Source: an archaeon (GTDB lineage Archaea; Asgardarchaeota; Thorarchaeia; Thorarchaeales; Thorarchaeaceae). From it: a DNA stretch of 32,000 bases. The position numbers and the translations under genes are program-made. The stretch spans positions 39,492 through 71,491 of the forward strand of contig JAJRZD010000042.1 of NCBI GenBank assembly GCA_024275415.1, read 5' to 3'. Shown in pieces: positions 4,730-24,272 of the stretch; position 1 is the first letter of the stretch, and every line of letters starts with the position of its first letter. The notes below the pieces were generated by a model. That model ran no database searches, was not told the DNA's origin, and saw only the letters and a program-made list of their open reading frames with translations.

Positions 4730-6511
4730 TTGAGTGAACACAAATCGATAATAATTGATCTGGAAGAAACCGAAATAGCGAATCTCAGTGAGTTTGGAGA
4801 TCTATCGACAATCAAAACCACTGGCATATTGAGTGTGAACAATGTTTCGGAACGATGTAGGGTCTGGAACGTCAGGGTTTTGGTGCCTGATGAACGTGAG
4901 GGCACAGATATCCAAGAAGACACTCTTATTGCAGGGGAAATAGAAGCCGGTGGAAAATGGGAACACGCCTACACTGTAGATGTGAGTGCACCCATAGTCA
5001 CGCTCACCGAAACGTATGATACATGTAGTGACTTTGGAGGTGATCTGCCGAATTGGGCATATGTCCACGGAAAAGAAACCAAAGTGAAGGTCACTCTGCA
5101 TCTGAAAAATGAAACAGATGCCCAGCTTGAGAATGTTATTTTAAACAAGACCATTCCTCCAGAGCTAACGAATGTCGAGATATCAAGTGTGAAGTCCGGC
5201 AACGCAGAGTATGATGAAGGAACCAGACAAGTGGTTTGGAGAGATCTGGTGATATATCCCAATGAAGAATCCACATTGGTATTGACAGGGATTAGTCGTG
5301 TGGATGATGTTGAGATCAGAAATGCCGGAGAGATTGTCGTTACCTACAAAGCGGAGAACCTTCAGAGATCATCACTCAAACCAGATATGACTGCCCTGAC
5401 CGAGTTCCTGACAGGAATAGAAACAGCCGAAACCGAGCCAAACGAGTGGGAGTGTACCTTAGAATGCTCAAACGAAAGCGACCTCATGGTCAGGCTTGAT
5501 AAAGCAGAGGTCTACCTGATTCCCGAGGATGGAGGCGAGAAAGTAAAGAAAATCGAGGAAGCCCCCGCATTGGAGATGATCCCTGGTCAAGAATGGTCTT
5601 CGACTTTTGAGGTCAGCAGCAAGTCACCACCAAAATGCACTCAAGAAGTGATATACACGCCCATGAATAGAGTCACTTCGCGTGTCATTGGAACCATTGA
5701 GAAGGCAGGTCAACCAATACCTGTTGCACATATCACATATACGAAGGTGTTCGATCCTCCCGAGGTGAACAGCTTTGACAAGACACCTGTCGAAGTTGAT
5801 ATCGAGGTGAAGAATGCAGGAACAGCCAAGCTGAATTCCATCAAAATCGTCGATAAATTACCTGACGATGTGATGCCTCCCAAGACAGAACATGTTTCTA
5901 TCTGGGTACGGGGCGAAGAATACACAGGCGAATTCAAAGTCACAGTTGATCCGGACGACCAAAATCCCGAAACCCCACATACAATGACATTTGAGATACT
6001 AAACCTAAAAGATACCGTAGGCGAGCTGGAGCCTGGCGAGTCGGTGAAAGTGAATTATGCGATTATGGCATGGAGAAGCAGACCTGAGAAGGAGTACCCG
6101 AGCCCTATCGAGATTTATGCAAATACTCATCCTGAAGGAGTCACCGCGGACGCCATCAGCGAGCCTGACACGCACAAGATCGGGATTCTCTATAAGAAGC
6201 GGAGGATTTCCGTAAAGAAGGCCATCAACAAGGGAGCGAACGCAGGAGAATACATCATCTTGTTGGTGGTCGAAAACAAGGGTGAGGTGACAGTCGAGAA
6301 TGTTAAGGTCACTGATTGGATTCCATCCGCTTTTGAATATGTTTCGACTGACCCGATGGAGGAAGAGCCGAGTGTGACCGAGGTCGAGGACTGCTCGGCC
6401 ATGACATGGATTTGGACAAGGATGAACCCTGGAGATCAAAAGAAGCTACGGGTTTCGGTGAAAGGCGAAGGGGAATACGAACGCAGAGAGCCCGAAGTCG
6501 TATCAGACTGA
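4730..6511 (+). CDS. Acidic multi-beta-sandwich protein: N-terminal mu-homology-domain (adaptin mu/delta-COP)-like region plus DUF11-like Ig domains
   Basis: 593 aa with no signal peptide or TM segment. Repeated 'V.N.G...+.NV.+.D.+P' DUF11-type strands. By-eye alignment to the mu-adaptin C-terminal domain (see findings). The CDS is confident; the domain call is inference. Confidence 0.6.
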   Translation: MSEHKSIIIDLEETEIANLSEFGDLSTIKTTGILSVNNVSERCRVWNVRVLVPDEREGTDIQEDTLIAGEIEAGGKWEHAYTVDVSAPIVTLTETYDTCSDFGGDLPNWAYVHGKETKVKVTLHLKNETDAQLENVILNKTIPPELTNVEISSVKSGNAEYDEGTRQVVWRDLVIYPNEESTLVLTGISRVDDVEIRNAGEIVVTYKAENLQRSSLKPDMTALTEFLTGIETAETEPNEWECTLECSNESDLMVRLDKAEVYLIPEDGGEKVKKIEEAPALEMIPGQEWSSTFEVSSKSPPKCTQEVIYTPMNRVTSRVIGTIEKAGQPIPVAHITYTKVFDPPEVNSFDKTPVEVDIEVKNAGTAKLNSIKIVDKLPDDVMPPKTEHVSIWVRGEEYTGEFKVTVDPDDQNPETPHTMTFEILNLKDTVGELEPGESVKVNYAIMAWRSRPEKEYPSPIEIYANTHPEGVTADAISEPDTHKIGILYKKRRISVKKAINKGANAGEYIILLVVENKGEVTVENVKVTDWIPSAFEYVSTDPMEEEPSVTEVEDCSAMTWIWTRMNPGDQKKLRVSVKGEGEYERREPEVVSD

Positions 6512-6932: not shown

Positions 6933-6953
6933 TATCTAAGTAAAGGAACGCCA

Positions 6954-8090
6954 TTATGCTTTCGCTATAAGGCTTTTCAAGCGGTCTTTATGCCTATCAG
7001 TATGCACCAGTGATGAGAATTCCTCATGCTGAATGACATGTTCCCACTGCAACAGGCAATCACAGGACAGGTCATCAAGTACCGCGACTGATTGGGACAA
7101 CGAGAATGACTTGATCGAGTCTGCGATGATATTGTCGCATTTCCCGCAGTTGTGGACACCTCGCGATTTGCCTACGGCGACAGGGTCGCATATGATATTG
7201 ATGTTCGAATCAATCTCTTTACGGGCACGTTTCAGGAGTTCCACTAGGCTCCACAACCAAGGCGGCCTGAATTCGCCTCGATGCCATAGCCTCTCAACAA
7301 GAGTGTGTTTCTGTATATTGACGGGGTTCACTGATACCGTTGTAACACCCATCCTTTCACAGTCGAGAACCGTCTGCAATGCGTCATCCAATGCAGTCTT
7401 TTCAGATAGAAATGGTGGCTTCAATAAGACGTATGCCCGAACACCAATATCATTTTCACGCGCAACCCGAGTCGCATCCATGAAGTCCTGCTTGCTGAAC
7501 CCCTTGTTGATGCACAGTCTTCTGATATTATCGTTGCTGCTCTCAAGTCCGATACCTATCTCCACTCTCCGAGTTCCAAGAGCCCTTCTCAATGCCTCCA
7601 TAGATTTGGATGTGACATAGTCTGGACGGGATTCGATAACTACTTCCGTGACACGCTCATCTTTTGCCAACAACAACAGTATCTCTTCTCGGACTGGAAT
7701 AGGAACCTCATCGGGATCCAAGAAACTTCCACTAGTATACAGCTTCACTGAGAGGGGAGCCTGTTTTTTTTCAAGTTTTGACATTGCATTCTGAAACTGC
7801 TTAATTATCTGTTCACCAGAGGGGGGCGTTTCAGAGCCATCTAAGAGATAGGAACACATCGTACAACCGCCAGAGATTCCTCGGGCATGGCTACATCCAA
7901 TTGTTGCCAACACAATCGAAAGGGCAGTCCCATCCGTTCCTCCAATGCGTGTGGTCGAGAGCCATGCTGCGGCAGGCTGAGATAGATCCTTGCTCTTCCT
8001 TCGTTTAATTGAGTCTTGCCGGGCATCCATTGATGCTCTGGCGATTGCTTCCTGTATCGATACTATATGGTCAGGGCACATAATCGTCAC
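6954..8090 (-). CDS. raSEA: Archaeosine biosynthesis radical SAM protein RaSEA
   Basis: GCSHARGISGGCTMCSY cluster motif, KLYTSGSFLD, IESRPDYV, IGLES, GEFRPPWLWSL, HNCGKCD; ATGA overlap with arcS. Confidence 0.92.
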   Translation of the reverse strand: MTIMCPDHIVSIQEAIARASMDARQDSIKRRKSKDLSQPAAAWLSTTRIGGTDGTALSIVLATIGCSHARGISGGCTMCSYLLDGSETPPSGEQIIKQFQNAMSKLEKKQAPLSVKLYTSGSFLDPDEVPIPVREEILLLLAKDERVTEVVIESRPDYVTSKSMEALRRALGTRRVEIGIGLESSNDNIRRLCINKGFSKQDFMDATRVARENDIGVRAYVLLKPPFLSEKTALDDALQTVLDCERMGVTTVSVNPVNIQKHTLVERLWHRGEFRPPWLWSLVELLKRARKEIDSNINIICDPVAVGKSRGVHNCGKCDNIIADSIKSFSLSQSVAVLDDLSCDCLLQWEHVIQHEEFSSLVHTDRHKDRLKSLIAKA

Positions 8091-10015
8091 TTCTCCTTGT
8101 GGCGGATTCGCACAGCAATCCCATTTGTGAAATCACACATCTCTTGTCCGCTCATCTCACTTCTGCCCACTCCAAGGACACGATCATTGGAATCAACCAC
8201 AATGACTTCGTCACCAGGGCGGATTGCTGTGTCTGCCGAACTCACACCCACTGCGAATATGGAACTCCCTTCAATTTGAGGGGCATCGAACCTGACCCAG
8301 TAACGGCCCAAAGATGCCAGTCTTTTACCACCCTCGAGGGTCAGGGACAGACGACCATTTATACCGGAGTACAGACAGGTTTGTGCATTACTGACTCGAC
8401 ATATTATAGAGCCATATACCTTCCCACGTACGCTCGCATCAGACGGCGCCAAACAATCTCCTGCACCCTCTCCAAACATGAAATCAGCAGTAGCCCGAAT
8501 CGTGTCCAGTAGAGTGCTGCGTTTTGGCAAGAGAGTGATGATGTCAAGCAAATCAGAGATGGTGTCTTTCAATGCTGCTAATGCAGTGTTACTTGTGGGG
8601 GATGCCTCGTGTGCTGTATAGATGATGCTTTGACGGATTTGAACCTCTGCTTGCCTGACGACATCAAGATAACCTCCTGATACATGAGCGATGACGACAA
8701 CAGACTCATCAAATTTGGAAAGATGCGTTACGAGAGCTTCAGCCGCAATCGTGGTTTCTTCAGCATCCCATTGCCCGGTCACTGGAATGTCATAATATCC
8801 GGCGGGGTAAATACGTTCCAGCTCTCTGGGAACCAGTCCCAATGGCGAAGTGATTATCGTTTCGGCCACAGCATCCCGTTTGTTACCAAGAATACGGTCA
8901 AGTACAGCGGAGAATCTACGATGTGACTTAGAGTCAGAATAGGGTTTTCTCGCAGAACAGGGGAACAATACGACTAGTTTCTTGTCATCAGAAGGCTTGT
9001 ATCTGCGGGCAACAAACTCTCTGAAACGAATGACTGTGGGTGAATAATATGATTCTGTGCCGATGAAAGGAATCTTCGTCCCGACGTGATTGGGGGTGAA
9101 CTCCTCAAGAAAAGAATACAGGGATGAATCGATTCTGCGAAGGAACGATGCTGCCTCTGGGCTTGCATGTGTCTTGGACTCCACAAACCACCGCAAGTTC
9201 CCATTGGCCGCAAAATGGATGGCTGAGGACAGTACCTGTGCATAGATGCTCGCATTGTGCTTCTCCAAGAGAGTTCGAGGGTCAGTGGATTCCTTCTCGG
9301 TTCCCATGCAATAGACACAGGAGCAATACCTCCGCTCGGATCCGAAACCTACAGGTTCTTCGTCCAGCCCCCACAGTCTGAGATTCCTACTGGCTGCTTC
9401 GAAGGCATATCCAAAATCGATCACATCGAACCCGACATAGTACAAGAGCGGGAGCATGGAAGGGGGAATTCGCCCTAGTGCAATACACAAGACATTACGC
9501 GGGAGCATGGATCGTAGAGTGAGATTTCTGAGGTCAGGTGGCCCATTCTCACCATTGAAAGTGAAGGCAACAACGGTAATCTCAGATGCTTTGATGAGTT
9601 CGACCAACGCATGCATGTCAGAATCGGAGATGTTAGACGGGATTCGGATAGCGAAACAAGAGCGGTCAGATTGGTCACCAGGGATTGCAGGCAATTGAGC
9701 CCGAACGTAGTTGATACCTATTTCAGATGGCATTGCAGAGAGTCCTGTCATAGATGGAAGTAGATAGATCATGTTTGCTCTTTTGATATCGTAAGAGATT
9801 GCTCCTTCTTGAAATAAAGAACCTGTGCTGCACATGTAGAACCCACTAGTAGATTCATTCAGGGCTGATACAGTGCAATACTGGATCTTAGAGTATGCCG
9901 AAGAAGCAGGTCCAAGTAATGCGGGAGTTTCTAGTCTTTCTTCTGCAAAGTGAAGAAATCCTCGTCTTGCCGGACCGTCATGACCTTTACGTATCATAAA
10001 GCGTACCAAAATCAA
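8087..10015 (-). CDS. arcS: Archaeosine synthase alpha subunit ArcS (TGT-like N-terminus, DUF5591, PUA)
   Basis: GFLHF...LETPALL TGT-like start, LFPCSARKPYSDSKSH, ITSPLGLVPRELE..YP..YYDIPVTG.W, C-terminal PUA (IRPGDEVIVV...GVGR); adjacent to raSEA. Confidence 0.92.
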   Translation of the reverse strand: MILVRFMIRKGHDGPARRGFLHFAEERLETPALLGPASSAYSKIQYCTVSALNESTSGFYMCSTGSLFQEGAISYDIKRANMIYLLPSMTGLSAMPSEIGINYVRAQLPAIPGDQSDRSCFAIRIPSNISDSDMHALVELIKASEITVVAFTFNGENGPPDLRNLTLRSMLPRNVLCIALGRIPPSMLPLLYYVGFDVIDFGYAFEAASRNLRLWGLDEEPVGFGSERRYCSCVYCMGTEKESTDPRTLLEKHNASIYAQVLSSAIHFAANGNLRWFVESKTHASPEAASFLRRIDSSLYSFLEEFTPNHVGTKIPFIGTESYYSPTVIRFREFVARRYKPSDDKKLVVLFPCSARKPYSDSKSHRRFSAVLDRILGNKRDAVAETIITSPLGLVPRELERIYPAGYYDIPVTGQWDAEETTIAAEALVTHLSKFDESVVVIAHVSGGYLDVVRQAEVQIRQSIIYTAHEASPTSNTALAALKDTISDLLDIITLLPKRSTLLDTIRATADFMFGEGAGDCLAPSDASVRGKVYGSIICRVSNAQTCLYSGINGRLSLTLEGGKRLASLGRYWVRFDAPQIEGSSIFAVGVSSADTAIRPGDEVIVVDSNDRVLGVGRSEMSGQEMCDFTNGIAVRIRHKEK

Positions 10016-12664: not shown

Positions 12665-12886
12665 GATACCACCGATGTTATCTCATTGCATTTGCTGCGA
12701 CTTAAAATCTTGTCATTATGTTACTTTTCGAGGTCATATGAACAATTACATAAGCCAATGTTGGAGTTATCCGCGGGACACACGGTTGTTCATAACCATT
12801 GCACAACTCTTATAAGCTTAGGTTTTGAGTGTCAATTGTGCAGTATTAATGCACAACCGAATAATCCGTAAAGGGAGATAAATCAA

Positions 12887-13249
12887 ATGGTCGAAGAAAT
12901 AACAGCGGATCAACTAAGCGAGGTCTTAGAGTCAAACAGGGTTGTGTTCGTGGATTGTCATGCTACTTGGTGTGGTCCATGTAAGACATTGTCGCCCATA
13001 ATGGAAGAGATTGACGCTAAGTATGGCGATAAAGGCGTGAAAGTTGTCAAGATTGATGTTGATCAGAACAGGCAGTTCAGCATGGAAAACCAGATTACAG
13101 GCGTTCCTAGCGTGCTTGTATATTCCGAGGGCAGAAGGGTCGTTTTCGATGATGGAAGCGGACGCAAAATGGACAAATTGGTCGGTGTAATGCCACCTGA
13201 AGTGTACAGCCAGATAGCTGAGAACCTCCTTGAGGAAGCTCCGGCATAG
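12887..13249 (+). CDS. trxA: Thioredoxin
   Basis: WCGPC active site, VKIDVDQN, GVPS cis-Pro motif; GGAG SD upstream. Confidence 0.92.
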   Translation: MVEEITADQLSEVLESNRVVFVDCHATWCGPCKTLSPIMEEIDAKYGDKGVKVVKIDVDQNRQFSMENQITGVPSVLVYSEGRRVVFDDGSGRKMDKLVGVMPPEVYSQIAENLLEEAPA

Positions 13250-13378
13250 GACAGAAAACACACGGGGGAACACGGGATCCCCCATTCTATTAATTTTTCA
13301 TTTCAACGAATCAGAGTAGTACGCAGATACATTCATAGGGTGCCTTTGAAAAAGCCTCTTAGAAGGATGTGAGAAAAC

Positions 13379-13744
13379 GTGGTTCGTGATATAACACCCG
13401 ATGAAGCAGCTGAGATGATTGAGAATACAAAAATCCTATTCATAGACTGTTGGGCACCGTGGTGTGGGCCATGTCTTGCCTTGGCCCCAACAATGGAGGA
13501 GTTGGAAGAGAAATACAAGGACAATAGGGACATCGAGTTTGTGAAGATTAACACGCAGAATCACAGACAGTTCGCCATGGACAATAATATCGTAGCGATC
13601 CCTTGTGTCCTTGTGTTCAAGGACGGAAAGCCTGCATCCTTCAAGATTGAGGATGCCAGATCCAAAAATCAAGTCACAACTGATAGATTAATTGGTCTGC
13701 GGCCCATAGAACATTATGAGGCAGTGATTGATCAACTGCTGTGA
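13379..13744 (+). CDS. trxA: Thioredoxin (tandem paralog)
   Basis: WAPWCGPC, FVKIN, AIPC; GTG start. Confidence 0.9.
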   Translation: MVRDITPDEAAEMIENTKILFIDCWAPWCGPCLALAPTMEELEEKYKDNRDIEFVKINTQNHRQFAMDNNIVAIPCVLVFKDGKPASFKIEDARSKNQVTTDRLIGLRPIEHYEAVIDQLL

Positions 13745-13754
13745 GGTGTTAAGG

Positions 13755-14279
13755 ATGCCAATTCTACCATTCGGAAACCATGCACCAAAGATAGACCCCG
13801 ATGCTTATGTAAGTGCACAAGCAACCATCATCGGCAATGTGGAGATTAGCTCTAATGCCAACATTTGGCCGGGTGCGGTAATCAGGGGGGATCAAGCTCA
13901 AGTAAGGATAGGAGAGGGCTCTTGCATTCAAGACAGTGTCGTTATTCACGCACATAATCCAGACAATCCGGCGATACTTGGAAATAGCACCATAATAGGG
14001 ACAGCAGCGGTATTGCATGGAGTATACATAGGAGATTATGCCAGCGTTGGTGAGGGATGTGCCCTTTTTGATGGAGCGACTCTAGGAGAGGGAGTCCTTC
14101 TTACACCTGGAAGCATCGTCCCCGGAAATGTCGTCATACCTCCAAGAAGCCTCAACTCGGGTGTGCCAGCAGCTCAGATTCGGGAGATAACCCGAGAAGA
14201 AGTAGAAAAGCAAAAGGCAAAGGCAGAAACTATCGCCGCAGTCTTTCAGAAGCTCAAGGGCTGGCAGCTAACAATCTAA
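13755..14279 (+). CDS. Gamma-carbonic-anhydrase-like hexapeptide-repeat protein (YrdA/CaiE family)
   Basis: PKIDPDAYV, IIGNVEI, IWPGAVIRGD, IQDSVVIH, VLHG and left-handed beta-helix repeats; GAGGTG SD before ATG 13755. Confidence 0.88.
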   Translation: MPILPFGNHAPKIDPDAYVSAQATIIGNVEISSNANIWPGAVIRGDQAQVRIGEGSCIQDSVVIHAHNPDNPAILGNSTIIGTAAVLHGVYIGDYASVGEGCALFDGATLGEGVLLTPGSIVPGNVVIPPRSLNSGVPAAQIREITREEVEKQKAKAETIAAVFQKLKGWQLTI

Positions 14280-15407
14280 TCAAACTATATCACGAGCAAG
14301 GGTGTTGCTACTCTCATATCCATCTTCAGTGATGAATACTACATCGGCAATCTTCGAACCACCTAACGAGGGATCATAGCATGAAGGATGGATAGAAAAG
14401 ACCATTCCAGGCCGAAGAGTGGTCTGCCCACCTAGCAATATATGAGGTGGTTCTCGCAGATCAAGCCCTATTGAGCTACCAAGTGGCTGTAGGATATTCC
14501 TGTGAGAACAGACTCCTTCAGCCACCGAAACCGCATTCTGTGCAAGCTCATCAACTAATACACCTGGCGCAAGATGTTGTTGGATAGCTTCAAAGACACG
14601 CAGATTTGTTTGAAACATCTCGTTTTGCATCTTTGATGGTTTGCCTAGATGTATCGTTCGGGCGACTTCTGCAAAATAGCCCCTGTGGCTAACCGTGATG
14701 TCAATCACTACAAGTTCATCATCACTGAGTCGCTGCGGCCCAGGGGTTGCAATGGGGAAACGGGCGGACTTGCCTGACAGAATGGCAGCTCTGATACCAC
14801 GAAGATGCCCACCCGCGTTGCGCATAGCAGACTCGACTTCTATCGAAACGTCGATTTCCGACTTTTCTGGCGACACTATCTCAAGTGCGGTCATGATGCC
14901 AATCTCAGCTATACGGACTGCATTGGATATCATGTCGATTTCTGATGGGTCTTTTATCTGCCTCAGTTTCCACAGTGATGACGAGAAATCTTTGAAACCT
15001 GCCTCTGGTAGTGCAGCCTTCAGCCGTTCAAATTCCCTGACAGATAGCCATTCCAGTTGTAATCCAATCATCCCAGACTGCATGCCTGTTGCGGCTATTT
15101 CTGAAACCACATGATCCCAGAAAGCGGTGCTATGTTGGGGATACCAAGTGTCCGTGTCATTGTTCGTGAAAGGACGGATCTCGGACATCACCGAATTCTG
15201 CCCAAGCAGTTCTGATTGCATCTCGGAGATTAGAAGTCGAGGAATGTCATTGGCAGAAACGATGCATGCAGTAGGGAGGTATTTCTTCTGCGCCTGATAT
15301 CCTGTCAGGTATTGCACATCCTGAGTGCGAGTAATGAGAAGAAGATCGACCTCTTCATGCTGCATTGAGTGGTGTACTCGATCTAGTCGTTGAGAAGTGA
15401 ATAGCAT
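14280..15407 (-). CDS. Xaa-Pro peptidase/creatinase (M24B)-fold protein with degenerate metal site
   Basis: Creatinase-N domain (DVQYLTGY), RQIKDPSEI, GY.AEVART, GLDLREPP, LRPGMVFSI.P. Metal ligands largely substituted. Confidence 0.85.
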   Translation of the reverse strand: MLFTSQRLDRVHHSMQHEEVDLLLITRTQDVQYLTGYQAQKKYLPTACIVSANDIPRLLISEMQSELLGQNSVMSEIRPFTNNDTDTWYPQHSTAFWDHVVSEIAATGMQSGMIGLQLEWLSVREFERLKAALPEAGFKDFSSSLWKLRQIKDPSEIDMISNAVRIAEIGIMTALEIVSPEKSEIDVSIEVESAMRNAGGHLRGIRAAILSGKSARFPIATPGPQRLSDDELVVIDITVSHRGYFAEVARTIHLGKPSKMQNEMFQTNLRVFEAIQQHLAPGVLVDELAQNAVSVAEGVCSHRNILQPLGSSIGLDLREPPHILLGGQTTLRPGMVFSIHPSCYDPSLGGSKIADVVFITEDGYESSNTLARDIV

Positions 15408-15573
15408 TCTTTGAGGACTCTCGCTAATAGATTGTTTCTTCTCATCTGACAGGCGAGAAGAGTTTTTTCTCCTGCCGACTTTGTTCCACTTTTAAGCATC
15501 ACGACGTCGAACTCGGACTTGTTCCCGAAGAGCATCATCATCATCACCCGAATGCACCGGAAACGAGAAGCGA

Positions 15574-15684
15574 TGGTGGGACCGCCCGGATTCGAACCGG
15601 GGAAAACCAACTCCGCAGGCTGGCGCCTTATATGCATCTCACCACCAATGAAGTGTGATTGAGACCATGCTAGACTACGGCCCC
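15574..15684 (-). tRNA. tRNA-Arg(GCG) with 33-nt D-loop intron (15632-15664) and encoded CCA
   Basis: Acceptor GGGGCCG/CGGTCCC; D stem GTCT/AGGC; anticodon arm CCAGC-CTGCGGA-GTTGG; T arm CCCGG-TTCGAAT-CCGGG. Removing a BHB-bounded intron gives a 78-nt mature tRNA with D-loop AGCATGGATA. Confidence 0.93.
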
Positions 15685-15705
15685 AAGCCGTCGGCTCAAG
15701 ATTCA

Positions 15706-15713
15706 TTCATAAA
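15706..15713 (-). promoter_or_regulatory. Putative TATA box of tRNA-Arg(GCG)
   Basis: TTTATGAA 22-29 nt upstream of tRNA G1. Confidence 0.35.
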
Positions 15714-15818
15714 GATTGTTGTTAGAAAGCCTGAAGTCCAAGGAGAACTCATCAGGTTTCACAATGACGATTCCACACTTCTTCTGGTATAACGAATTGG
15801 GTTAGAATCGTGTTACTT

Positions 15819-16433
15819 CTAAGAGGAGTATGTGGCATTAAGGCTTTGAATTCTCAAAGAACAGGGATTCTCCAACGAGGTTCCACCAATGGCGGAAGAA
15901 CCACTAAGAATGATTGTTAGTCTTACACCAATCCAGTATTGAGAGTTCTCCAAAACTGTAAAGTGGCTGTTGGCGCTCACCGACCTCGATACGTTTGCTT
16001 GTTTGGTATTTGAGGAAACAGATGCATTAAACACATCCATTCGATCTATTTCGTTGTAATACGCTCCAAAGATCAAATAGCTTACTATCAAAGTGACACT
16101 TGAAAGATAGCCTGATTGCATATAGTAGGTAAGATTCCATTCAGAGGTTATCGAGATGATGCTCTGGGCCGTTGAGTTAAACGGAATTGTATACTGAACA
16201 TAAGAGGATTTATGGGAGGAGAGATATCCTTGATTTCCTCTAATAGTTAGGACTCTTTCTTCTTGGTTCATACCCACATGAACGAACACACGTGCATCCT
16301 GATTGTAAAAATTATCACCTTCAATTGTATCCATCCGTGAGTCCCAGATCAACCAGCTTGTAGGAATAAGTATCAAGAACAACACACAGATGCCAAATAC
16401 CAGCTTTTTCCTAGACGTTATTCCCGAGTTCAT
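15819..16433 (-). CDS. Secreted/membrane-anchored beta-rich hypothetical protein
   Basis: Basic residues followed by a hydrophobic N-terminal segment (RKKLVFGICVLFLILIP); S/T/N-rich with several N-x-S/T sequons. Confidence 0.75.
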   Translation of the reverse strand: MNSGITSRKKLVFGICVLFLILIPTSWLIWDSRMDTIEGDNFYNQDARVFVHVGMNQEERVLTIRGNQGYLSSHKSSYVQYTIPFNSTAQSIISITSEWNLTYYMQSGYLSSVTLIVSYLIFGAYYNEIDRMDVFNASVSSNTKQANVSRSVSANSHFTVLENSQYWIGVRLTIILSGSSAIGGTSLENPCSLRIQSLNATYSS

Positions 16434-16727
16434 TTTCTGACTGCCTTACGAGAATTTGATCTTTTACATTTCTCGTGCGAATTTCTTGTTTCAAGGAGTT
16501 ATAATTCTATCTTCAAAAGGGGCCCTGAAAAGCCAAGAAGAATTTGCTCAGTCTTAGTGGTACCGAAAATTAACCAACGCACGTTCATATTTGTTGAATA
16601 TCTGTTTCATTCTACTCTGCTTATGATAGCAAATTCAGACATTTCAAACAACTCTGATTTGTAAGGTAACAAAACATTTGAGACAAGTGGGAGCCACAGG
16701 AGACCATCACATGAAAACGTGATTAAG

Positions 16728-16892
16728 ATGATGAGCTCCGTGACTCACCGAGAACGAATTGTGAAGTATGCCCTTAAGAAATCTGTGACTGCCGCCTCCA
16801 TGGTGTTCAGTGTTTCGAGGTCCTCCGTCTACCCTTGGCGCAAATTGGTGCTGTATAAAGTGATTGTTTTCAAACAGGCAGGAGATTTGTAA
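16728..16892 (+). pseudogene. Truncated transposase N-terminal HTH (IS481/IS630-like) remnant
   Basis: Manual translation MMSSVTHRERIVKYALKKSVTAASMVFSVSRSSVYPWRK... matches the 'R.RIV......GV..AA..F.VSR.+VY.W.K' transposase HTH pattern. No DDE core follows; 54 aa, below the track cutoff. Confidence 0.6.
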
Positions 16893-17567
16893 TTGAAGAA
16901 GCAGAATAATAGATTAATTGTGATTGGAATTACAATCCTCTTTCTAATGCCCCATCTGAGTACAATACTAGCAGGTTCCTCATCAAACCTTACTAAAAGG
17001 CATTTGATCCCTGCATACTTAGAGTCCACACCATTCGATGAGGATAGAGCTTATGAAACTCCAGTTTCCGGGGTTATTACAGTTGTTAGTGCTGATTCAA
17101 GTACTGGCGATGCACAAATAGAAGGATCTACGAATTGGCCATTGACTGGATTGGGCACTTGGCATGCGTATGTATATGTACACATACAGATTATCCCTAC
17201 ACTGCTCAATCAGAAAGTGAAGATTGGATTTTCGGGATTGCTAAGTTACAAACTGGAAAGTTTTTGGCAAGGATCCGGTTCCATTGATATATCAGTAGTC
17301 TTACTCTCGGCCGCAGAAACTGAGCTGGATAGTCATTTGATATGGGCAGACTCGGTTTACGATTCGGAGGCATCGGGAACACCAGTCTGGAGTTCAAGCA
17401 CTACATATAAACTGGACGGCGAATTTACTCTTCAATATGGTCAAACGTATTATCTAGCTGTTCGATTACATGTAGTACTTGATAACAATGGCGGGATTCA
17501 CTCAGCGACAGGTGTAGACCCTGCATACCTTGATGTAAGCGCAATTCGGTATTATTTCTACACATAA
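16893..17567 (+). CDS. Secreted beta-rich hypothetical protein (paralog of 15819-16433)
   Basis: Signal-peptide-like MKKQNNRLIVIGITILFLM; C-terminal FT......YYLAVRL motif shared with the 204-aa protein. TTG start. Confidence 0.75.
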   Translation: MKKQNNRLIVIGITILFLMPHLSTILAGSSSNLTKRHLIPAYLESTPFDEDRAYETPVSGVITVVSADSSTGDAQIEGSTNWPLTGLGTWHAYVYVHIQIIPTLLNQKVKIGFSGLLSYKLESFWQGSGSIDISVVLLSAAETELDSHLIWADSVYDSEASGTPVWSSSTTYKLDGEFTLQYGQTYYLAVRLHVVLDNNGGIHSATGVDPAYLDVSAIRYYFYT

Positions 17568-17576
17568 CAGATTAGT

Positions 17577-17600
17577 TGAAGATGCGCTAGTGCATCTTCA
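17577..17600 (+). terminator. Hairpin after secreted-protein gene
   Basis: TGAAGATGC-(6 nt)-GCATCTTCA perfect 9-bp inverted repeat, starting 9 nt after the stop. Confidence 0.4.
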
Positions 17601-17714
17601 CATTTATCTTATTCAGATGCTCAGCGAATTAATAATTGAGGTTTCAAATCACAAGCATGAGGAATTTAAGCAATTACATGCGCAATATTATCGTATAGTG
17701 TAGGGGCCTGAAAG

Positions 17715-20381
17715 ATGAGTTACTTCGAACTTGGTACATCAAATAAAGTTCTAGTCTTTTGCTTTGTCCTGTCATGCTTAATCCCATCTATGACGTATAT
17801 TCTAATAGATACTTCAGCAGGAGCTAACTGGATAAAATCCATTGAGAACTTGCCAATAGATGCATCAATTATAACTACGAAGAAACAAGATCAAATTCTT
17901 CAGACGGCACGAGGATTAGAAGTCGTAGCAAGCATCGAGAAGAGCATACTTGGATATTTACAAGTGAATGCTACAGAAACGCTCGCTACTACTCAGTATG
18001 GATCAGTAGAGTATTTTGGCTTATTTCCAAGATTGGTTTCTCTCATATCAGGACATCTTCCGATGAATTCTTCTGAGGTTGCCATTGAGATTAATTATTC
18101 TCGATATCATGGTTTCAATCTGAGTGACGTTCTAAGTTTCGGGAATAATGAATCTACGTCATTTGATATCGTAGGTTTCTTCGAGATAAAATCCAAGCAT
18201 CCATACTCAGGGGGCTTATTGAATGGTCGTCCAACTATTATCTTAGATATGTCATCATTCGAAAAAACCAGAAACCTGCTAGAAACTTATCGGTTCTTTT
18301 ATGATATCGATATAAAGAATGAATTACTTACTCCTATTGTCTACGATTCGCTAGACACGATCCTTAAAGAGATTTCAGAACCTATCATACAAATTGGATC
18401 TGCCTATGGAGAAACAGAAATTCATATCCTAAGGGTTTTTCAGGAGTTTGAGATACAACAGGAGTTAGCAAATAGGCAGCTTGTTTACATCGAGATGCCA
18501 ACATGGGTAGTTACAGTTGTTCTTGTATCGATGGGCGTTCACTATGTTCAGGCTTCACATCAATCATTGATTCGTGTTTTCAAGTCGAGGGGTGCAAGCC
18601 ACCGACAAATTATACGATTTGAACAACGAAATCTTGTCAAGAGCTTTTTTACGGGTGCACCACTTGGAATAATTATGGGCAGTGTACTTGCACTCGTAAT
18701 GGCTACTATAAGCAATATGACCGATGAATCAGCCATTGAAACCATCACACCCTTGTTCATTTCATCTAGGTCAATCATCAATATTCTATCTCTTGGATTT
18801 GTTCTACCATGGGTCATTTGGATGATAATATTCTTTATCTCTGATATTCAAAGAACCTCAAAGAGAATTTCTGATTCTGGTTTGAATGACTATTTGATAA
18901 AGGGGCTATTAGTGACATTATTCTTTGTTGGAATGGTTAGCATCGTTCTTTCGATATCTTCCAAGATACGGCCTTCTCAGAATCCTTGGATTGTGAATGG
19001 ATTATTGATGGGTAGTATCCTTGTGACTCCGCCAATCATTTGGATTGCTTGGAAAAGTATTGCTCACATTGGATTCAAGTCGAGGTCTAGTAGCGATATA
19101 CGAACAAAGAGGATGTCATCTCTTTTAGGTTCAGCTAGAGTAATCTTGGTTAGGAAAAGGATGTTAGTTACAGTCACGGTGGTAACACTGGCAATATCAT
19201 CCTCACTCATAGTAGGAAATGTCAGTGAGATGGTTATCATATCTCGCATCAATCAAGCACGCCAAGTTCTTGGAAGCGATGTCACATTTACGGTATTCCC
19301 TTCGAAACTGGAAGACTTGGAAGAAAATCTGATACGGCTTCGGAGTATTGAATATGTAAAAGATGCGACCTACGTCACATATCGTCAAGCTAAAGTGGGC
19401 GACGAATTGTATGCAGATTTGATAGGGATAAGACCAATTGAATTCGGTAAAACCGTATATACACAGCTTGGAAAGGATATGGAGGACTCGGCTATCAAGC
19501 CATATTTAGATGTGATGAAGAATACGACCAATGGCTTGATAATAAGCCAAGACTTGGCAGACATTCTTCATGTTTCGATTGGAGATACATTACGAGCGGC
19601 TCTGTTTGTTCAGCAAGAAGGGGATTTTCTTCATATCCCTGTGGATTTCCTCATTCTATTCATATCCGAAGAGTTGACGAATCCGGAATTGCTTATGGAA
19701 TACAATAACAACCACGAACTGATTTCAGAGAATCTTGGAAAGCGAATAATGTGGGCAAATATGGAATACATTCTAAGCTTGTCAGATTTTGATATCTCTT
19801 ATGGCATTATATTAGCAAAGACAGATAGCCATGTTCAGGAAGACCAACTTGCTGAACTCATCAGTGATATCAATATTGAAAACTATAGTCCAAAGGGGTA
19901 TTCAGCGTGGGTCTACGCTAATCCAGCCGAGATCATCTATGTTGATTCACTGAGAAGAACTGTTGGGACAGTAGCACTAGTTGGGACTTTTATCGTGTGC
20001 TTCACCCTACCATTGGTATATTTTCACTCTGACCGGGAATCAAGAGATCGTGAGATTGCCATACTCAAAGCGCTAGGAGTGTTGGATTCATCAATATTCA
20101 AATCATACTTCATCGAGTTCCTATATCTTGTGTTGGTAATGATGGAGTTGCTTGTTCTATTTATCCCTGTGTTCTTAATGACATCACTTACGATTGGAAT
20201 CGATGGGGCCTGGAATTATGTTAGGTTGGAAACAAACATCCTGTATGCATATCTACTAGCTCCGATAGCGGTATTCTTGTTTGCGGGCATCCTATCCATA
20301 ATATTCAGTCTGAGGAAACGCTCAGAATCTATTAGATTGATGTTACGCAGACAAGAGATGTATCATTTGGAGGAATGGTAA
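17715..20381 (+). CDS. FtsX/MacB-type ABC transporter permease (two FtsX modules)
   Basis: Repeated TM1-large extracellular domain-3TM layout; FKSRGASHRQI and REIAILKALGV motifs; LGSDVTF periplasmic-domain start. Confidence 0.85.
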   Translation: MSYFELGTSNKVLVFCFVLSCLIPSMTYILIDTSAGANWIKSIENLPIDASIITTKKQDQILQTARGLEVVASIEKSILGYLQVNATETLATTQYGSVEYFGLFPRLVSLISGHLPMNSSEVAIEINYSRYHGFNLSDVLSFGNNESTSFDIVGFFEIKSKHPYSGGLLNGRPTIILDMSSFEKTRNLLETYRFFYDIDIKNELLTPIVYDSLDTILKEISEPIIQIGSAYGETEIHILRVFQEFEIQQELANRQLVYIEMPTWVVTVVLVSMGVHYVQASHQSLIRVFKSRGASHRQIIRFEQRNLVKSFFTGAPLGIIMGSVLALVMATISNMTDESAIETITPLFISSRSIINILSLGFVLPWVIWMIIFFISDIQRTSKRISDSGLNDYLIKGLLVTLFFVGMVSIVLSISSKIRPSQNPWIVNGLLMGSILVTPPIIWIAWKSIAHIGFKSRSSSDIRTKRMSSLLGSARVILVRKRMLVTVTVVTLAISSSLIVGNVSEMVIISRINQARQVLGSDVTFTVFPSKLEDLEENLIRLRSIEYVKDATYVTYRQAKVGDELYADLIGIRPIEFGKTVYTQLGKDMEDSAIKPYLDVMKNTTNGLIISQDLADILHVSIGDTLRAALFVQQEGDFLHIPVDFLILFISEELTNPELLMEYNNNHELISENLGKRIMWANMEYILSLSDFDISYGIILAKTDSHVQEDQLAELISDINIENYSPKGYSAWVYANPAEIIYVDSLRRTVGTVALVGTFIVCFTLPLVYFHSDRESRDREIAILKALGVLDSSIFKSYFIEFLYLVLVMMELLVLFIPVFLMTSLTIGIDGAWNYVRLETNILYAYLLAPIAVFLFAGILSIIFSLRKRSESIRLMLRRQEMYHLEEW

Positions 20382-23078
20382 TTGTTTCTATCTGAAAGAG
20401 TGACATTCAACACTAATATTACTATTCTCGGAATAGTATCGTGGTTACTACTATCATCCGCCGTTAGTGGAAGTATTACTATTATCGCGATATTTGAGTC
20501 GAACATCACAATGGATTATTTAGATTCAGTATCATTGGACATTGGTGTCAGTGCACAGAAAGAGTACAAAACTCAAACTACGATGAAGATTGGCGATGTG
20601 GTTGCGATAATTGAACGACTGGGAATGTCCAATCGAGTAGAAGCTATCGGTCGATTATTGGTGTCAACTAGTTCAATTTCATGGAACCCTATTACACTAA
20701 TAGGAGTCAATGACTCCTTTTTTTATTCATTCGATGATTCCTTCACAATTCAAACCTCATCTAGTCTTGACCCATACTCGTGCATAGTGGATCTCGAATA
20801 CTTATTGGAACAGGGACTTCATATCGGAGATAACATCACATTGACACTTTTCGGAACTAACGAGAATGAGAAAAGCATCTCAAAGGAGTTTCGAATAATT
20901 GGAACATATGATTCGACATTCTTGGATGCAGAGAAGAAAATTAATCCATATGATGACTGGATTGAGCCAAGAATAATTACTTCATATAATGGAGTTCGTG
21001 CTAGATACAATGATAGCTATTTTGGAGAGTCAAATGGTGTCAATGTGGATATTCTCATAAGAATCCGAAGGGACTTGCTAATTGGTAAGGATGTAGATCA
21101 CATACTTGGTTTTATTCAGGAAACGCAAAGTGAAATTGATCAATTGCTATTACCGTACTTCTTTGTCTATTTGAGCGGACTTGAGGATGCTATATCTTCG
21201 TTGGAGGGTTGGAGGAATGCTGCGTATGGACTGTTTGGAGTTGTTTTCTTGCCAGGGGTAATATCATCTTTTTTGCTCACAATTTCCTATTTATCATTCC
21301 ATAAAGTGAATTCTTCAAAACGCTTTGTTGAATGGCGAGGCGCAAGTAAAAAACAAAGAGCGCTATGGGAGTGTACACCTTTTATCTTCTGTGGAGTTAC
21401 TGGTATTCTCATCTCAATTGTCATAGATGTTGTTCTAATATACGCACTTCTGAATACTCGATCATTAAACTATATTCTTAATATTGCATCCACAGCATCC
21501 TTACCTGCATCATTCTTATTGCTAGTGCCATTACTTGTTATAACTGGATCGTATTTTCTGTGGGATGAAATCAAAAAGAAGCCCACTATCAGATTCGCAA
21601 ACTGGCACAAGATGTTCTTCTCCACGGTTTTCATTCTATTGCTTGTGTATAGTGGGGTTTCAGTAAGCATCCTCTCACAATCTTTTTGGTCAAACCTTGG
21701 ATATTCTGCAACATATATTGTTACGTACCAACTAATCCTATCACTTGTTGTATTCTTAGTTCTAGGAATCTCAGGATTCGCAGTCGTTGGAAGGAACATG
21801 TATTCATCGATAATGCATTATATCGGCTTTAGAAAGCAGAATATTCTATTTCGCATCATTGTTCGTAGATTATCAAGAAATGGGATTAGATTCATTTTGT
21901 CATTGTTCTTTATCATCCTCGTTACTGCATCTATAGGATATGGGCAGATAATTTCTCAAACTTCTCACAGACACATCCATGATACAATTTGGTTCTCAAA
22001 TGGAGCTGACCTTCGAGTGACCAGCGATTCAGACCCTGATTCGATTCTTCAGGTTCTTGATAACTCGAATAGTATCAGCTCAATGAGCAAGGTAGACATC
22101 TACCAAGCATACTTTCTAAGTCAGGGTGAGATGGTACACACTTTACTATTTGGGCTTTCCGAATCGTGGTGGGATACTGTATTTCTACGAGATGATTTCT
22201 TTATTGGTCAAAGTCAGCAAAATGCAAGGGATGCCTTTCTCAAAAGTAACTTTTCGGCAATAACTAACTTTGGCAAAGTCATCGGGTTCGACTCAACAGG
22301 GCCGTTAGTAGACAACTCCGTACAGCTCTTTCTAACAGAAAACTCATCAGATTACATATCTTTGAATGTCGTAGATAGATTAGCTTTCTTTGATATTGAA
22401 TCAATGTCATTTAGTCAGAGTTTCCTGCCAGGTCATCCAAGGTTCTCGGGAAATTTCATTTTGGTTCGTGACATGGTTTTTGAGTCGTTCAACATTTCAG
22501 CAAGCAGTTTCGAAGTCTATGCATCATTTAAGGAGGATATCACACCTAGAGAGATGGAGGCGATTGAAGAGGCTTTACCTGCCAAAAGTAAGATACAATA
22601 TGCGTCAGAACTATTGGACGAAAGTTTTCTGAACAAAAGTTTTGAAGCAATGATTGATTTGGTAGACATTGCTGCGGTACTTGGTTTTTTAGCGCTTATC
22701 ATCAGTTGTCCAATTTTGGTTTCAACACAACTGGAATCTACAAGAATTGATTATGCTATTCTCAAAACATATGGTTATGAAACAACAAAAAGCAAAGTGG
22801 GGTATGGACTGGCAACTATATTGGAAATCTCTTTAGGGATGTTCTTTGGAATGATCCTTTCAATCTTCTTTGCTTTATCAATTGGAACATGGCCACTTCA
22901 AGCTCTTGTGATCGTTTCAGATATAAACTGGAATCGTATCCCTGAATCTCTTGTATTCCCATGGGATACACTCCTTCTCACTTTGGGAGGTCTTCTAGTT
23001 CTGTGGCTATCTATATCTGAGATAATACTAATGAAGCTACTGAACAGAACTTTAGTGAGTCTCCTTCCGGATGAATAG
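20382..23078 (+). CDS. FtsX/MacB-type ABC transporter permease (two FtsX modules)
   Basis: EWRGASKKQ and DYAILKTYGY motifs, NGADLRV; GGAGG SD 8 nt before the TTG start. Confidence 0.85.
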   Translation: MFLSERVTFNTNITILGIVSWLLLSSAVSGSITIIAIFESNITMDYLDSVSLDIGVSAQKEYKTQTTMKIGDVVAIIERLGMSNRVEAIGRLLVSTSSISWNPITLIGVNDSFFYSFDDSFTIQTSSSLDPYSCIVDLEYLLEQGLHIGDNITLTLFGTNENEKSISKEFRIIGTYDSTFLDAEKKINPYDDWIEPRIITSYNGVRARYNDSYFGESNGVNVDILIRIRRDLLIGKDVDHILGFIQETQSEIDQLLLPYFFVYLSGLEDAISSLEGWRNAAYGLFGVVFLPGVISSFLLTISYLSFHKVNSSKRFVEWRGASKKQRALWECTPFIFCGVTGILISIVIDVVLIYALLNTRSLNYILNIASTASLPASFLLLVPLLVITGSYFLWDEIKKKPTIRFANWHKMFFSTVFILLLVYSGVSVSILSQSFWSNLGYSATYIVTYQLILSLVVFLVLGISGFAVVGRNMYSSIMHYIGFRKQNILFRIIVRRLSRNGIRFILSLFFIILVTASIGYGQIISQTSHRHIHDTIWFSNGADLRVTSDSDPDSILQVLDNSNSISSMSKVDIYQAYFLSQGEMVHTLLFGLSESWWDTVFLRDDFFIGQSQQNARDAFLKSNFSAITNFGKVIGFDSTGPLVDNSVQLFLTENSSDYISLNVVDRLAFFDIESMSFSQSFLPGHPRFSGNFILVRDMVFESFNISASSFEVYASFKEDITPREMEAIEEALPAKSKIQYASELLDESFLNKSFEAMIDLVDIAAVLGFLALIISCPILVSTQLESTRIDYAILKTYGYETTKSKVGYGLATILEISLGMFFGMILSIFFALSIGTWPLQALVIVSDINWNRIPESLVFPWDTLLLTLGGLLVLWLSISEIILMKLLNRTLVSLLPDE

Positions 23079-23129
23079 AATAGTCGAACATCTCGTGAGC
23101 TAATGAGTGGCCTGACTGTGTGGAAATAA

Positions 23130-23193
23130 CCGCAGGCTGGCACCTTAATGTATATTCCAATACAGAGAGTCTGCAATTAGAATCATGCCAGAC
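23130..23193 (-). pseudogene. Degenerate 5'-half copy of tRNA-Arg(GCG) (positions ~10-37) with its own 33-nt hairpin intron; att-like island boundary
   Basis: GTCTGGCATGA vs GTCTAGCATGG (9/11); 33-nt insert at 23150-23182; TAAGGTGCCAGCCTGCGG vs TAAGGCGCCAGCCTGCGG (17/18). No acceptor strand and no 3' half. Confidence 0.8.
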
Positions 23194-23249
23194 ATTTGTA
23201 TTTGCTTTGGAGTCTTAGCTGCGGAATATCGTCCATGTGCGGATTTCGA

Positions 23250-23450
23250 CTAGGAGATTGATAATAGGTTGACGATTGCACGGCTGTTCCGCTTTGTGAC
23301 TCGGAGTGTATGTTCAGATGTCTGAAGGATGAAGCTTTCGCCTTCATCCAAATTCTCAAGGACTTTCTTCCCCATTGGGCCGTTGAGGTATCTGGCATAT
23401 CGTTCCACAACGGGGTGTTTCGAGGCACCGACCTCTTTGGTTATTGGCAT
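23250..23450 (-). CDS. Small hypothetical protein (66 aa)
   Basis: MPITKEVGASKHPVVERYARYLNGPMGKKVLENLDEGESFILQT...; protein-like composition, AGGT SD-like motif upstream of ATG 23450. Confidence 0.55.
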   Translation of the reverse strand: MPITKEVGASKHPVVERYARYLNGPMGKKVLENLDEGESFILQTSEHTLRVTKRNSRAIVNLLSIS

Positions 23451-23583
23451 ATGAATCGACCTCATCTTATCATGTAGTCGTTAGCTTGCCTTTTAAACCA
23501 CAATCAAAATGTGCCGAAGATAGGTTATTATAGAAGAGCTTAAAGGGCATTCGAAATTGATGCAACTGCGAATTGGTACAGCA

Positions 23584-23661
23584 GGGCGTGTAGTCTAGTC
23601 TGGATAGGGCGCTTGCCTCCGGAGCAAGATGTCCCAGGTTCGAATCCTGGCACGCCCGCCA
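23584..23661 (+). tRNA. tRNA-Arg(CCG), intronless, encoded CCA
   Basis: Acceptor GGGCGTG/CACGCCC; D arm GTCT-AGTCTGGATA-GGGC; anticodon arm CTTGC-CTCCGGA-GCAAG; T loop TTCGAAT; ends G-CCA. Confidence 0.96.
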
Positions 23662-23723
23662 CTCCCAATCTGCCAGCCAGTCCGATGGTCGGATTGCTGT
23701 CCGAACGTTCTCATACAGAGCAT

Positions 23724-24272
23724 CTATGACATCAGTTCGTTCGGATCGATGGGCCACCATGCGCCACGTTTACCATCGCGTTCACCACGCTCGAAACGAA
23801 GAATATGATTTCCAGTGACCTCTTTCGCACGCTGGTTCAGTTTACCGAGCCTGTCAAGAACGGTTCTTCGTTTTGTGGCATCACCCAGAATCTCTTCAGC
23901 TAGGTCTGGGGTGGTAGCTCCACCGTGCATGATAATATATGCAAGTAGTTTCCTATCGAGTTCATCGCGGCACACCTTGAGCTTTATGGTTTCGTTGAGT
24001 TCTCCCCGATAGACGCTGGTATCTCTGAGTCGCTCAAGGTAAGAAACACGAGCCTTCAGATCCTCAACCTCAAGTATGAGCTCATTTACCACAGGAGGTA
24101 ATTCTGCATCCAATCGGGAAACCACGGAATCCCGAATGAATTTTTGCCGCCCAGATTCTCCAACCAACCGGTCAATCCTGTCAACAAGTTCTCTCGGCAA
24201 ACGAACCCGAATGCTAACAGTTCCGCTCTCTCTGGGGTCTGGCAAGATACCGATCAACCACCTTAACCTCAT
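23724..24272 (-). CDS. Ribbon-helix-helix + coiled coil + winged-HTH putative DNA-binding protein
   Basis: TVSIRVRLPRELVDRIDRLVG...RQKFIRDSV (RHH); ILEVEDLKARVSYLERL (coiled coil); DRKLLAYI...GATTPDLAEEI...RRTVLDRLGKL (wHTH). Start may be TTG 24245. Confidence 0.75.
   Translation of the reverse strand: MRLRWLIGILPDPRESGTVSIRVRLPRELVDRIDRLVGESGRQKFIRDSVVSRLDAELPPVVNELILEVEDLKARVSYLERLRDTSVYRGELNETIKLKVCRDELDRKLLAYIIMHGGATTPDLAEEILGDATKRRTVLDRLGKLNQRAKEVTGNHILRFERGERDGKRGAWWPIDPNELMS

Follow-up and report, generated by a model that had tools for sequence, protein, structure and literature searches.

The 32,000-nucleotide window analyzed here (assembly GCA_024275415.1, contig JAJRZD010000042.1, positions 39,492 to 71,491) belongs to a 3.5-Mb Asgard genome of the family Thorarchaeaceae (hereafter G000) and holds the sole GCG copy of tRNA-Arg in that genome, an intron-containing gene separated by a 7.4-kb island from a decayed version of its own 5' half. 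We compared this locus across 86 genomes of the family, which are designated by G-numbers, and with metagenome contigs (L077, L078/L079 and L080), using P_H for the host tRNA promoter found at empty sites, in which no island is present, and P_E for the promoter of the live gene in the window. Protein families of the island were assigned with Pfam and PHROGs, gene remnants were searched for with tBLASTn, and tRNAs were called with ARAGORN and Rfam. Between the two genes that serve as synteny anchors, the locus is organized as follows:

14280..15407, minus strand: M24-family peptidase-like gene, the right synteny anchor.
15574..15684, minus strand: live tRNA-Arg(GCG) gene, with exon 1 at 15665-15684, the intron at 15632-15664 and exon 2 at 15574-15631; CCA is encoded.
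15685..15729, minus strand: promoter/leader P_E, containing AACAACAATCTTTATGAA and GACGG.TT and unlike the empty-site promoter.
15730..23129, no strand assigned: island cargo, 39% GC, inserted relative to the sister species.
23130..23193, minus strand: relic of the resident tRNA-Arg(GCG) 5' half, comprising an exon-1 piece at 23183-23193 (nt 10-20), an insert at 23148-23182 and an exon-2 piece at 23130-23147 (to G37).
23205..23221, minus strand: mutated remnant of P_H (CAGCTAAGACTCCAAAG versus CAGCGAAGACTCTATAAG); about 19 nt, tRNA nt 1-9 among them, have been lost between this remnant and the relic.
23250..23465, minus strand: conserved small open reading frame (ORF) of 64-71 aa, the left synteny anchor, which lies next to the tRNA gene at every empty site.

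The live gene carries a 33-nt intron in its D-loop, the limits of which are set by intron-less relatives in which gene nt 1-20 (...GCATGG) are joined straight to ATAAGGCG. The predicted fold of the pre-tRNA is a cloverleaf bearing a D-loop intron hairpin with GCAU/AUGC and CUCA/UGAG helices, and the characteristics of a non-canonical bulge-helix-bulge intron are all present, namely intron-less orthologues, a cloverleaf upon removal of the insert and helices that span the junctions. Judged by these sequence features, the insert is an archaeal non-canonical (bulge-helix-bulge) tRNA intron that is predicted to be spliced. ARAGORN and Rfam overlook or misassign the gene because of this non-canonical intron, and the start at 15574 given in an earlier, preliminary description of the window is correct.

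The relic lies 7.4 kb upstream of the intact gene in the identical orientation. Its exon-1 piece, GTCTGGCATGA, is identical to the live sequence, GTCTAGCATGG, at 9 of 11 positions, its exon-2 piece, TAAGGTGCCAGCCTGCGG, agrees with the live gene at 17 of 18, and the likeness stops exactly after G37. An 18-nt block with at most one mismatch arose in none of 2000 shuffles that preserved the composition of the window, placing the match far beyond chance in the significance test that the preliminary description had called for. At the very site of the live intron, the relic contains a different D-loop insert of 34-35 nt (22/38 aligned positions identical), for which a hairpin of 13 bp, interrupted by one bulge and including two G-U pairs, is predicted. 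The preliminary description had reported just such a 5' half (same orientation, matches of 9/11 and 17/18, an end at position 37) with a different, still hairpin-forming insert at the same site, which alignment and fold now corroborate, and both of its caveats hold, in that the relic has no tRNA nt 1-9 and the island no integrase. The P_H remnant next to the relic was scored against the motif of the sister species G005, with an equally good score in only 8 of 1936 windows; relative to G005, about 19 nt are gone between the P_H box and tRNA nt 10, and the missing nt 1-9 are accordingly explained by a later deletion of ~19 nt between promoter box and nt 10.

Sites without the island reveal what the locus looked like before. 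In G005, which belongs to the same genus as G000, the order is M24 gene, tRNA-Arg(GCG), 85 bp with P_H, and small ORF, and this arrangement is colinear with window positions 12785-15685 and 23265-23508. L077, L078/L079 and L080 also represent empty sites (small ORF, tRNA, M24 gene), and the P_H consensus, CAGCGAAGAnTCTATAAG, precedes the tRNA gene at every one of them and occurs in other genera as well. In a tree built from the two flanking proteins, G000 pairs with G005 (support 97/95), and a second pair is formed by G003 and G006 (support 99/99), which share 89% amino-acid identity. An intact tRNA gene next to the small ORF, as the preliminary description had predicted for relatives, was thus seen in G005 (at a distance of 85 bp), L077, L078 and L080, and no cargo-free relative was found that combines the live intron with the same relic, a finding that this description had named as speaking against it. 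By this comparison, the relic lies where the gene ancestrally was and still has the ancestral promoter beside it. The relic might instead be an old partial duplication, or a tRNA-like sequence that arose by chance, with the island having arrived separately; the absence of a recombinase and of exact direct repeats longer than 12 nt would fit such a history. However, this alternative is already contradicted by the shuffled sequences, by the location of the relic exactly at the empty-site gene position beside the P_H remnant, and by cargo-free relatives that have no relic at the site, and we give it almost no credence.

The front of the live gene has a different source. The 45 nt upstream of it cannot be aligned with P_H, and they share an identical block of 18 nt, AACAACAATCTTTATGAA, and the motif GACGG.TT with the upstream region of the live tRNA-Arg(GCG) gene of G003. 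By exact-pattern search, P_E is found beside a tRNA-Arg 5' end only in G000 and G003 among the 86 family genomes. When one genome per GTDB species was searched for the P_E TATA box followed by 15-30 nt and a tRNA 5' end, only G003 and one chance match were obtained, and the P_E-tRNA pattern had no match in viral contigs and none in metagenome contigs. G003 has a relic of its own, consisting of P_H with a mutated TATA box and tRNA nt 1-65 with mutations in the acceptor and the anticodon, after which come 1.45 kb with a geranylgeranyl-reductase-like gene and then the P_E-driven live gene; at the same place its sister G006 has an empty site with P_H. Because P_E occurs in G000 and in the non-sister G003, each with its own relic, two independent lineages have gained the same foreign front with unrelated cargo. 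These data agree with the claim of the preliminary description that an element supplied the promoter and the 5' part, since the live promoter is not ancestral and recurs only in G003, and the rebuilt tRNA is predicted to be read from the element-supplied promoter.

Between P_E and the relic lie four ORFs and a fragment of an insertion sequence (IS):

15819..16433, minus strand: ORF of 204 aa, without family match.
16657..16843, plus strand: truncated 5' end (first ~185 nt) of an HTH+rve (DDE) insertion sequence.
16893..17567, plus strand: ORF of 224 aa, without family match.
17715..20381, plus strand: ORF of 888 aa, with an FtsX-like permease C-terminus.
20382..23078, plus strand: ORF of 898 aa, a second large membrane protein, which stops 52 nt from the relic.

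The GC content of positions 15685-23129 is 39.1%, whereas the genome averages 47.0% (sd 1.9), and each of the genome's 2779 other windows of 7.4 kb has a higher value, so that the cargo described earlier as AT-rich turns out by sliding GC to be the lowest such window of the genome. The IS scar noted at the same time is real as well, being the truncated HTH+rve element at 16657-16843, which has at least five further copies in the genome at 77-91% identity. The family of the 888-aa protein is found in 75 of the 86 related genomes (as ~930-aa paralogues), to whose members, including G000's own copy, the island protein is only 22-26% identical, and no close relative of it was detected among 5.8 billion proteins. 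On account of the lowest GC and this isolated protein, we consider the island cargo to be foreign DNA. An integrase split in the manner of SSV was considered and rejected: for the ORFs that span the junctions, 15383-15706 and 22898-23176 (both minus strand), neither PHROG nor Pfam gave a match, and the space is occupied by the 898-aa gene on the opposite strand. The two Phage_integrase-family genes of G000 are located on other contigs and not near tRNA genes.

The back of the live gene, in turn, resembles that of the host. Its first 10 nt past CCA (TCGCTTCTCG) are identical to the trailer of the P_H-type empty site L078, and in G003 the trailer and the T-arm intron match those of its own clade, G006 and L080. 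No orphan tRNA 3' half was found within 13-25 kb; a candidate 3'-half remnant downstream of the live gene was discarded as a mere chance GTTCGA, with 327 of 1000 shuffles scoring as high. Because the trailer is host-like and an orphan 3' half is absent, we infer that the gene was rebuilt by a crossover inside it, not replaced whole. The 5' part of the tRNA forms a direct repeat at both ends of the island, with the intact gene at the downstream end. We conclude that a 7.4-kb foreign island probably integrated in tRNA-Arg(GCG), rebuilding a live gene with a foreign front and a resident back. Empty sites, the P_H remnant and P_E in this way support three elements of the preliminary description: an inserted island, a live promoter and 5' part that are not ancestral, and a relic that is the resident 5' half.

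Such an event would have begun with a foreign element, circular or otherwise recombining, that carried P_E, tRNA-Arg(GCG) nt 1-37 and a D-loop intron as its attachment arm. In a Campbell-type integration, presumably catalyzed by a site-specific recombinase, possibly one of the tyrosine type, the element would have recombined with the 5' half of the resident tRNA-Arg(GCG), joining P_H and resident nt 1-37 to element DNA at the upstream junction, the future relic, and element DNA, P_E and the element's 5' part to the resident 3' half and trailer at the downstream junction, the live gene. The relic would then have decayed through mutation of its TATA box, loss of ~19 nt including nt 1-9 and substitutions at ~10-20% of conserved positions, while the recombinase and mobility genes would have been lost, leaving the four cargo genes and the IS fragment. 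The event is the mirror image of the usual integration into a tRNA 3' half.

Several results weigh against this history or against a transfer of the intron along with it. Neither Pfam nor PHROG searches of the island and of the ORFs overlapping its junctions identified an integrase, transposase or other recombinase, tBLASTn with G000's own integrases had no match in the island, and no similarity to a TnpB gene or its guide-RNA scaffold was detected in 15000-24000. A P_E arm that is free or accompanied by an integrase was found in none of the viral, metagenome or genome collections. The ends of the two relics differ, lying at G37 in G000 and at about nt 60-65 in G003, which is unexpected if one site-specific integrase was responsible for both P_E events. 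The nearest relative whose site is empty is a distant one, its flanking proteins having ~70% amino-acid identity, and for this reason the intron allele that preceded integration cannot be read directly; an M24-based scan of metagenome contigs yielded nothing close to G000, and a protein search for nearer relatives yielded nothing above 68% identity. Over the whole intron, it is the live allele that is nearer to the G005 intron (24/35, reached by 0/500 shuffles), compared to 21/36 for the relic insert (56/500), and the comparison of the hairpin interior that leans to the relic lacks significance.

Whether one intron replaced another turns on the side of the D-loop intron, 3' or 5', on which the crossover took place. 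With a crossover 5' of the intron (within nt 1-20), the same integration would have swapped the promoter and left the intron in place; the live intron would be the resident one, and the relic hairpin would be the element's copy, possibly already non-functional. The architecture by itself cannot place the crossover, and the whole-intron identities are what one would expect from this course of events, but the likeness between the live and G005 introns is confined to the splice-motif ends, and the G005 intron is equally near the introns of other genera (22/34). Since these ends are constrained and conserved across genera, whole-intron likeness is uninformative, and we discarded it as a test for the resident allele. 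In the hairpin interior, by contrast, the live allele is unlike G005 and L077 (score 1, p ~0.95), whereas the relic shares TGCAG...CTG with both (score 4, p ~0.2; relic-type hairpin ATTGCAGA...TCTGTAT). tRNA-targeting elements carry an arm that starts at the crossover and extends to whichever end of the gene has to be restored (reviewed in PMC8371274), and an arm that ends at G37 therefore points to a crossover in the anticodon loop. Taken together, we consider a crossover 3' of the intron, probably in the anticodon loop, a good deal more plausible, in which case the live intron came with the element; a crossover 5' of it is a secondary possibility. In favour of the intron replacement proposed in the preliminary description is the hairpin interior of the relic, which is nominally nearer to the G005 and L077 introns than that of the live allele, and the prediction of that description that empty sites would have a relic-like intron fares likewise, agreeing nominally in the interior and failing for the intron as a whole.

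An intron in the T-arm is found in the tRNA-Arg(GCG) of the clade formed by G003, G006 and L080 (loci 4590-4724 of L037 for G003, 5975-6091 of L038 for G006 and ~8756-8866 of L080). The 3' part of the G003 T-arm intron (GGGGCGGTAGTCT) resembles nt 1-13 of the same tRNA (GGGGCCGTAGTCT), and from this resemblance the T-arm intron of the clade could be a recombination scar turned intron.

An altogether different course would be one in which the gene was broken after G37 and never rebuilt, either by a non-reconstructing integrase or by an IS607/TnpB-type insertion of the kind present elsewhere in the family, after which a complete foreign P_E-tRNA-Arg gene on the inserted DNA took over and the resident 3' half was deleted together with the agent of the break. 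Precedents for its parts exist, as the tRNA-Arg(GCG) of G013 is broken at nt 37/38 with a fragment lying directly against the guide-RNA-like scaffold end of a TnpB gene, and unrebuilt junctions are documented as tRNA-dependent lysogeny (PMC10865867); in addition, there are 610 extra bp downstream of the live tRNA of G003. This scenario is nevertheless quite improbable, because the live trailer agrees with that of an empty, P_H-type site in the same genus, G003 retains the trailer and T-arm intron of its clade, neither an orphan 3' half nor a remnant of TnpB or its scaffold is present, and at least two extra deletions would be required.

In G013 (genus g8; L072 = G013:C37:26000-36072), the tRNA-Arg(GCG) beside the M24 gene is reduced to nt 29-76 (6048-6096, minus strand), and a fragment ending at nt 37/38 (6941-6957, plus strand) lies inverted 850 bp away, adjoining the scaffold end of the TnpB ORF at 7089-8759 (minus strand). 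No intact GCG gene was found in the G013 assembly by exact pattern. The TnpB of G013 is 67% identical to one encoded on contig C82 of G000 (L069 = C82:4500-8000), where a 2.4-kb element has a single TnpB-like ORF of 558 aa with a Cas12f1-like TNB domain and is flanked by a perfect 89-nt repeat of a tRNA 3' part (tRNA at 4969-5086, repeat at 7488-7576). This tRNA is Thr according to ARAGORN and Leu(UAG) according to its anticodon arm. Directly after the conserved scaffold that follows the ORF, at the position of a TnpB guide, is an 18-nt segment antisense to nt 23-40 of the tRNA (16/18).

Additional tRNA copies accompany live genes elsewhere in the family. On contig C10 of G000 (L070 = C10:71000-75500), a decayed full-length intron-bearing copy of tRNA-Met (~74440-74540) is located 2.6 kb upstream of the live gene (71870-71976), the two being separated by an SBP_bac_5 solute-binding-protein gene, and this pair looks, from its arrangement, like another replaced tRNA gene. 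G012 (L040, G012:C10; 2372-2470 and 8102-8228) has an extra P_H with tRNA-Arg(GCG) nt 1-43, including both introns, 5.7 kb upstream of its live gene; the canonical intron of the extra copy resembles that of the sister G094 (L071), and that of the live gene differs. G012 was rejected as a clean replicate of the event, because the 2.6 kb upstream of its live tRNA are syntenic with G094 and the extra copy is consequently not in the ancestral place; the history of that locus is more complex. In G065 (L073) and G057 (L074) of genus g6, decayed full-length copies of tRNA-Arg(GCG) with their own P_H and mutated acceptor 3' strands lie 0.45-1.2 kb upstream of the live genes.

The site between the small ORF and the M24 gene, with tRNA-Arg(GCG) in it, is a recurrent insertion hot spot in the family. 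On the P0004 contig (Logan, run SRR13394437; gene calls only), the small ORF and the M24 gene are separated by an oppositely oriented ORF of 1388 aa (~4.2 kb), and this contig would represent a third occupied state, with yet another load. One could imagine that promoter, 5' exon(s) and intron of tRNA-Arg(GCG) form a portable cassette in this Thorarchaeota-type family, brought repeatedly to the same site by unrelated islands without recombinases (G000, G003, the P0004 contig), with RNA-guided TnpB nucleases, whose guides derive from tRNA, making the recurrent break on the 3' side of the anticodon loop and foreign tRNA-bearing DNA being caught in the repair. We hold this proposal to be unlikely; if it were true, gain, loss and allele turnover of Asgard tRNA introns would proceed mostly through nuclease-triggered repair, not through classical integrases.

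On the other side of the small ORF, the neighbouring tRNA-Arg(CCG) gene (23584-23661, plus strand) is inverted relative to G004, G005 and G006, in which the CCG and GCG genes form a tandem in one orientation. The window copy is divergent (79-82% identity; flanks inspected at 23466-23730), and a promoter-like remnant, CCTTTAAGCT, persists in the old orientation between tRNA-Arg(CCG) and the promoter of the small ORF. Inversion and divergence together suggest a second replacement or inversion event at the locus.

The leading idea on how archaeal non-canonical tRNA introns arise, move and are replaced is their delivery by mobile elements that recombine inside tRNA genes, for which very few natural cases are known. 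The locus provides a well-documented example from Asgard archaea, with an occupied site, several empty sites, a displaced promoter and 5' half, and a recurrent foreign promoter, and it shows that an island can swap the promoter of a tRNA gene that is both essential and single-copy.

Its closest counterpart is found in Caldiarchaeum subterraneum, where delivery of an intron by the attP arm of a mobile element was proposed for tRNA-Thr-F / tRNA-Thr-II (Sugahara et al., 2012; PMC3293823). In both cases an orphan 5' fragment lies upstream of an intact gene with inserted DNA between them and a differing state of the D-arm intron and, as that model has it, the orphan fragment and the intact gene of the window differ in intron content at a non-canonical site. 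The C. subterraneum case, however, concerns the gain of an intron, a 1.8-kb insert with a putative recombinase and heterogeneity within one population, whereas the window confronts allele with allele at the same site, its promoter is swapped too, no recombinase is left and the evidence comes from comparison between species. The pTN3-like and TKV4/MVV-type elements of Thermococcales and Methanococcales use a tRNA 5' half as attB, and the promoter of the element drives the rebuilt gene (PMC8371274). The 5'-half target, the restoration of an uninterrupted tRNA and the element-borne promoter are common to them and the island, but they encode a tyrosine (SSV-type) integrase beside or across attP, and since none is present in the island, membership in this group cannot be claimed. 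Among 39 tRNA-targeting elements of Thaumarchaeota, CalSub-E1 is the one 5'-distal integration (Krupovic et al., 2019; PMC6563490), a survey that also recorded integrations into intron-containing tRNA genes. CalSub-E1 is likewise a rare integration in the 5' part of an archaeal tRNA gene, but in another phylum and another tRNA, and exchange of intron or promoter was not analyzed there.

Two further systems resemble the locus in part. In the tRNA-dependent lysogeny of actinobacteriophages, the tRNA gene is not rebuilt and a complete phage tRNA complements it (Guerrero-Bustamante and Hatfull, 2024; PMC10865867). There, too, DNA is inserted in a tRNA gene and the cell relies on tRNA sequence supplied by the element, but the live gene of the window appears to be rebuilt, given that its trailer is host-like and that an orphan 3' half is absent. 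IS607/IS605-type TnpB elements, whose nucleases use guide RNAs (PMC11061315), come into consideration through the same tRNA in G013, where a break at nt 37/38 has left a 5' stump, but the window island differs in that neither a TnpB gene nor a guide-RNA scaffold lies within or adjoining it. The novelty claimed in the preliminary description was therefore overstated, given that the route had been proposed for C. subterraneum (PMC3293823) and that integration into a 5' half with provision of a promoter was known (PMC8371274). The locus is a natural example of an already proposed process and establishes no new mechanism; what it adds is the confrontation of intron with intron, the exchange of a promoter and recurrence at one hot spot, in Asgard archaea.

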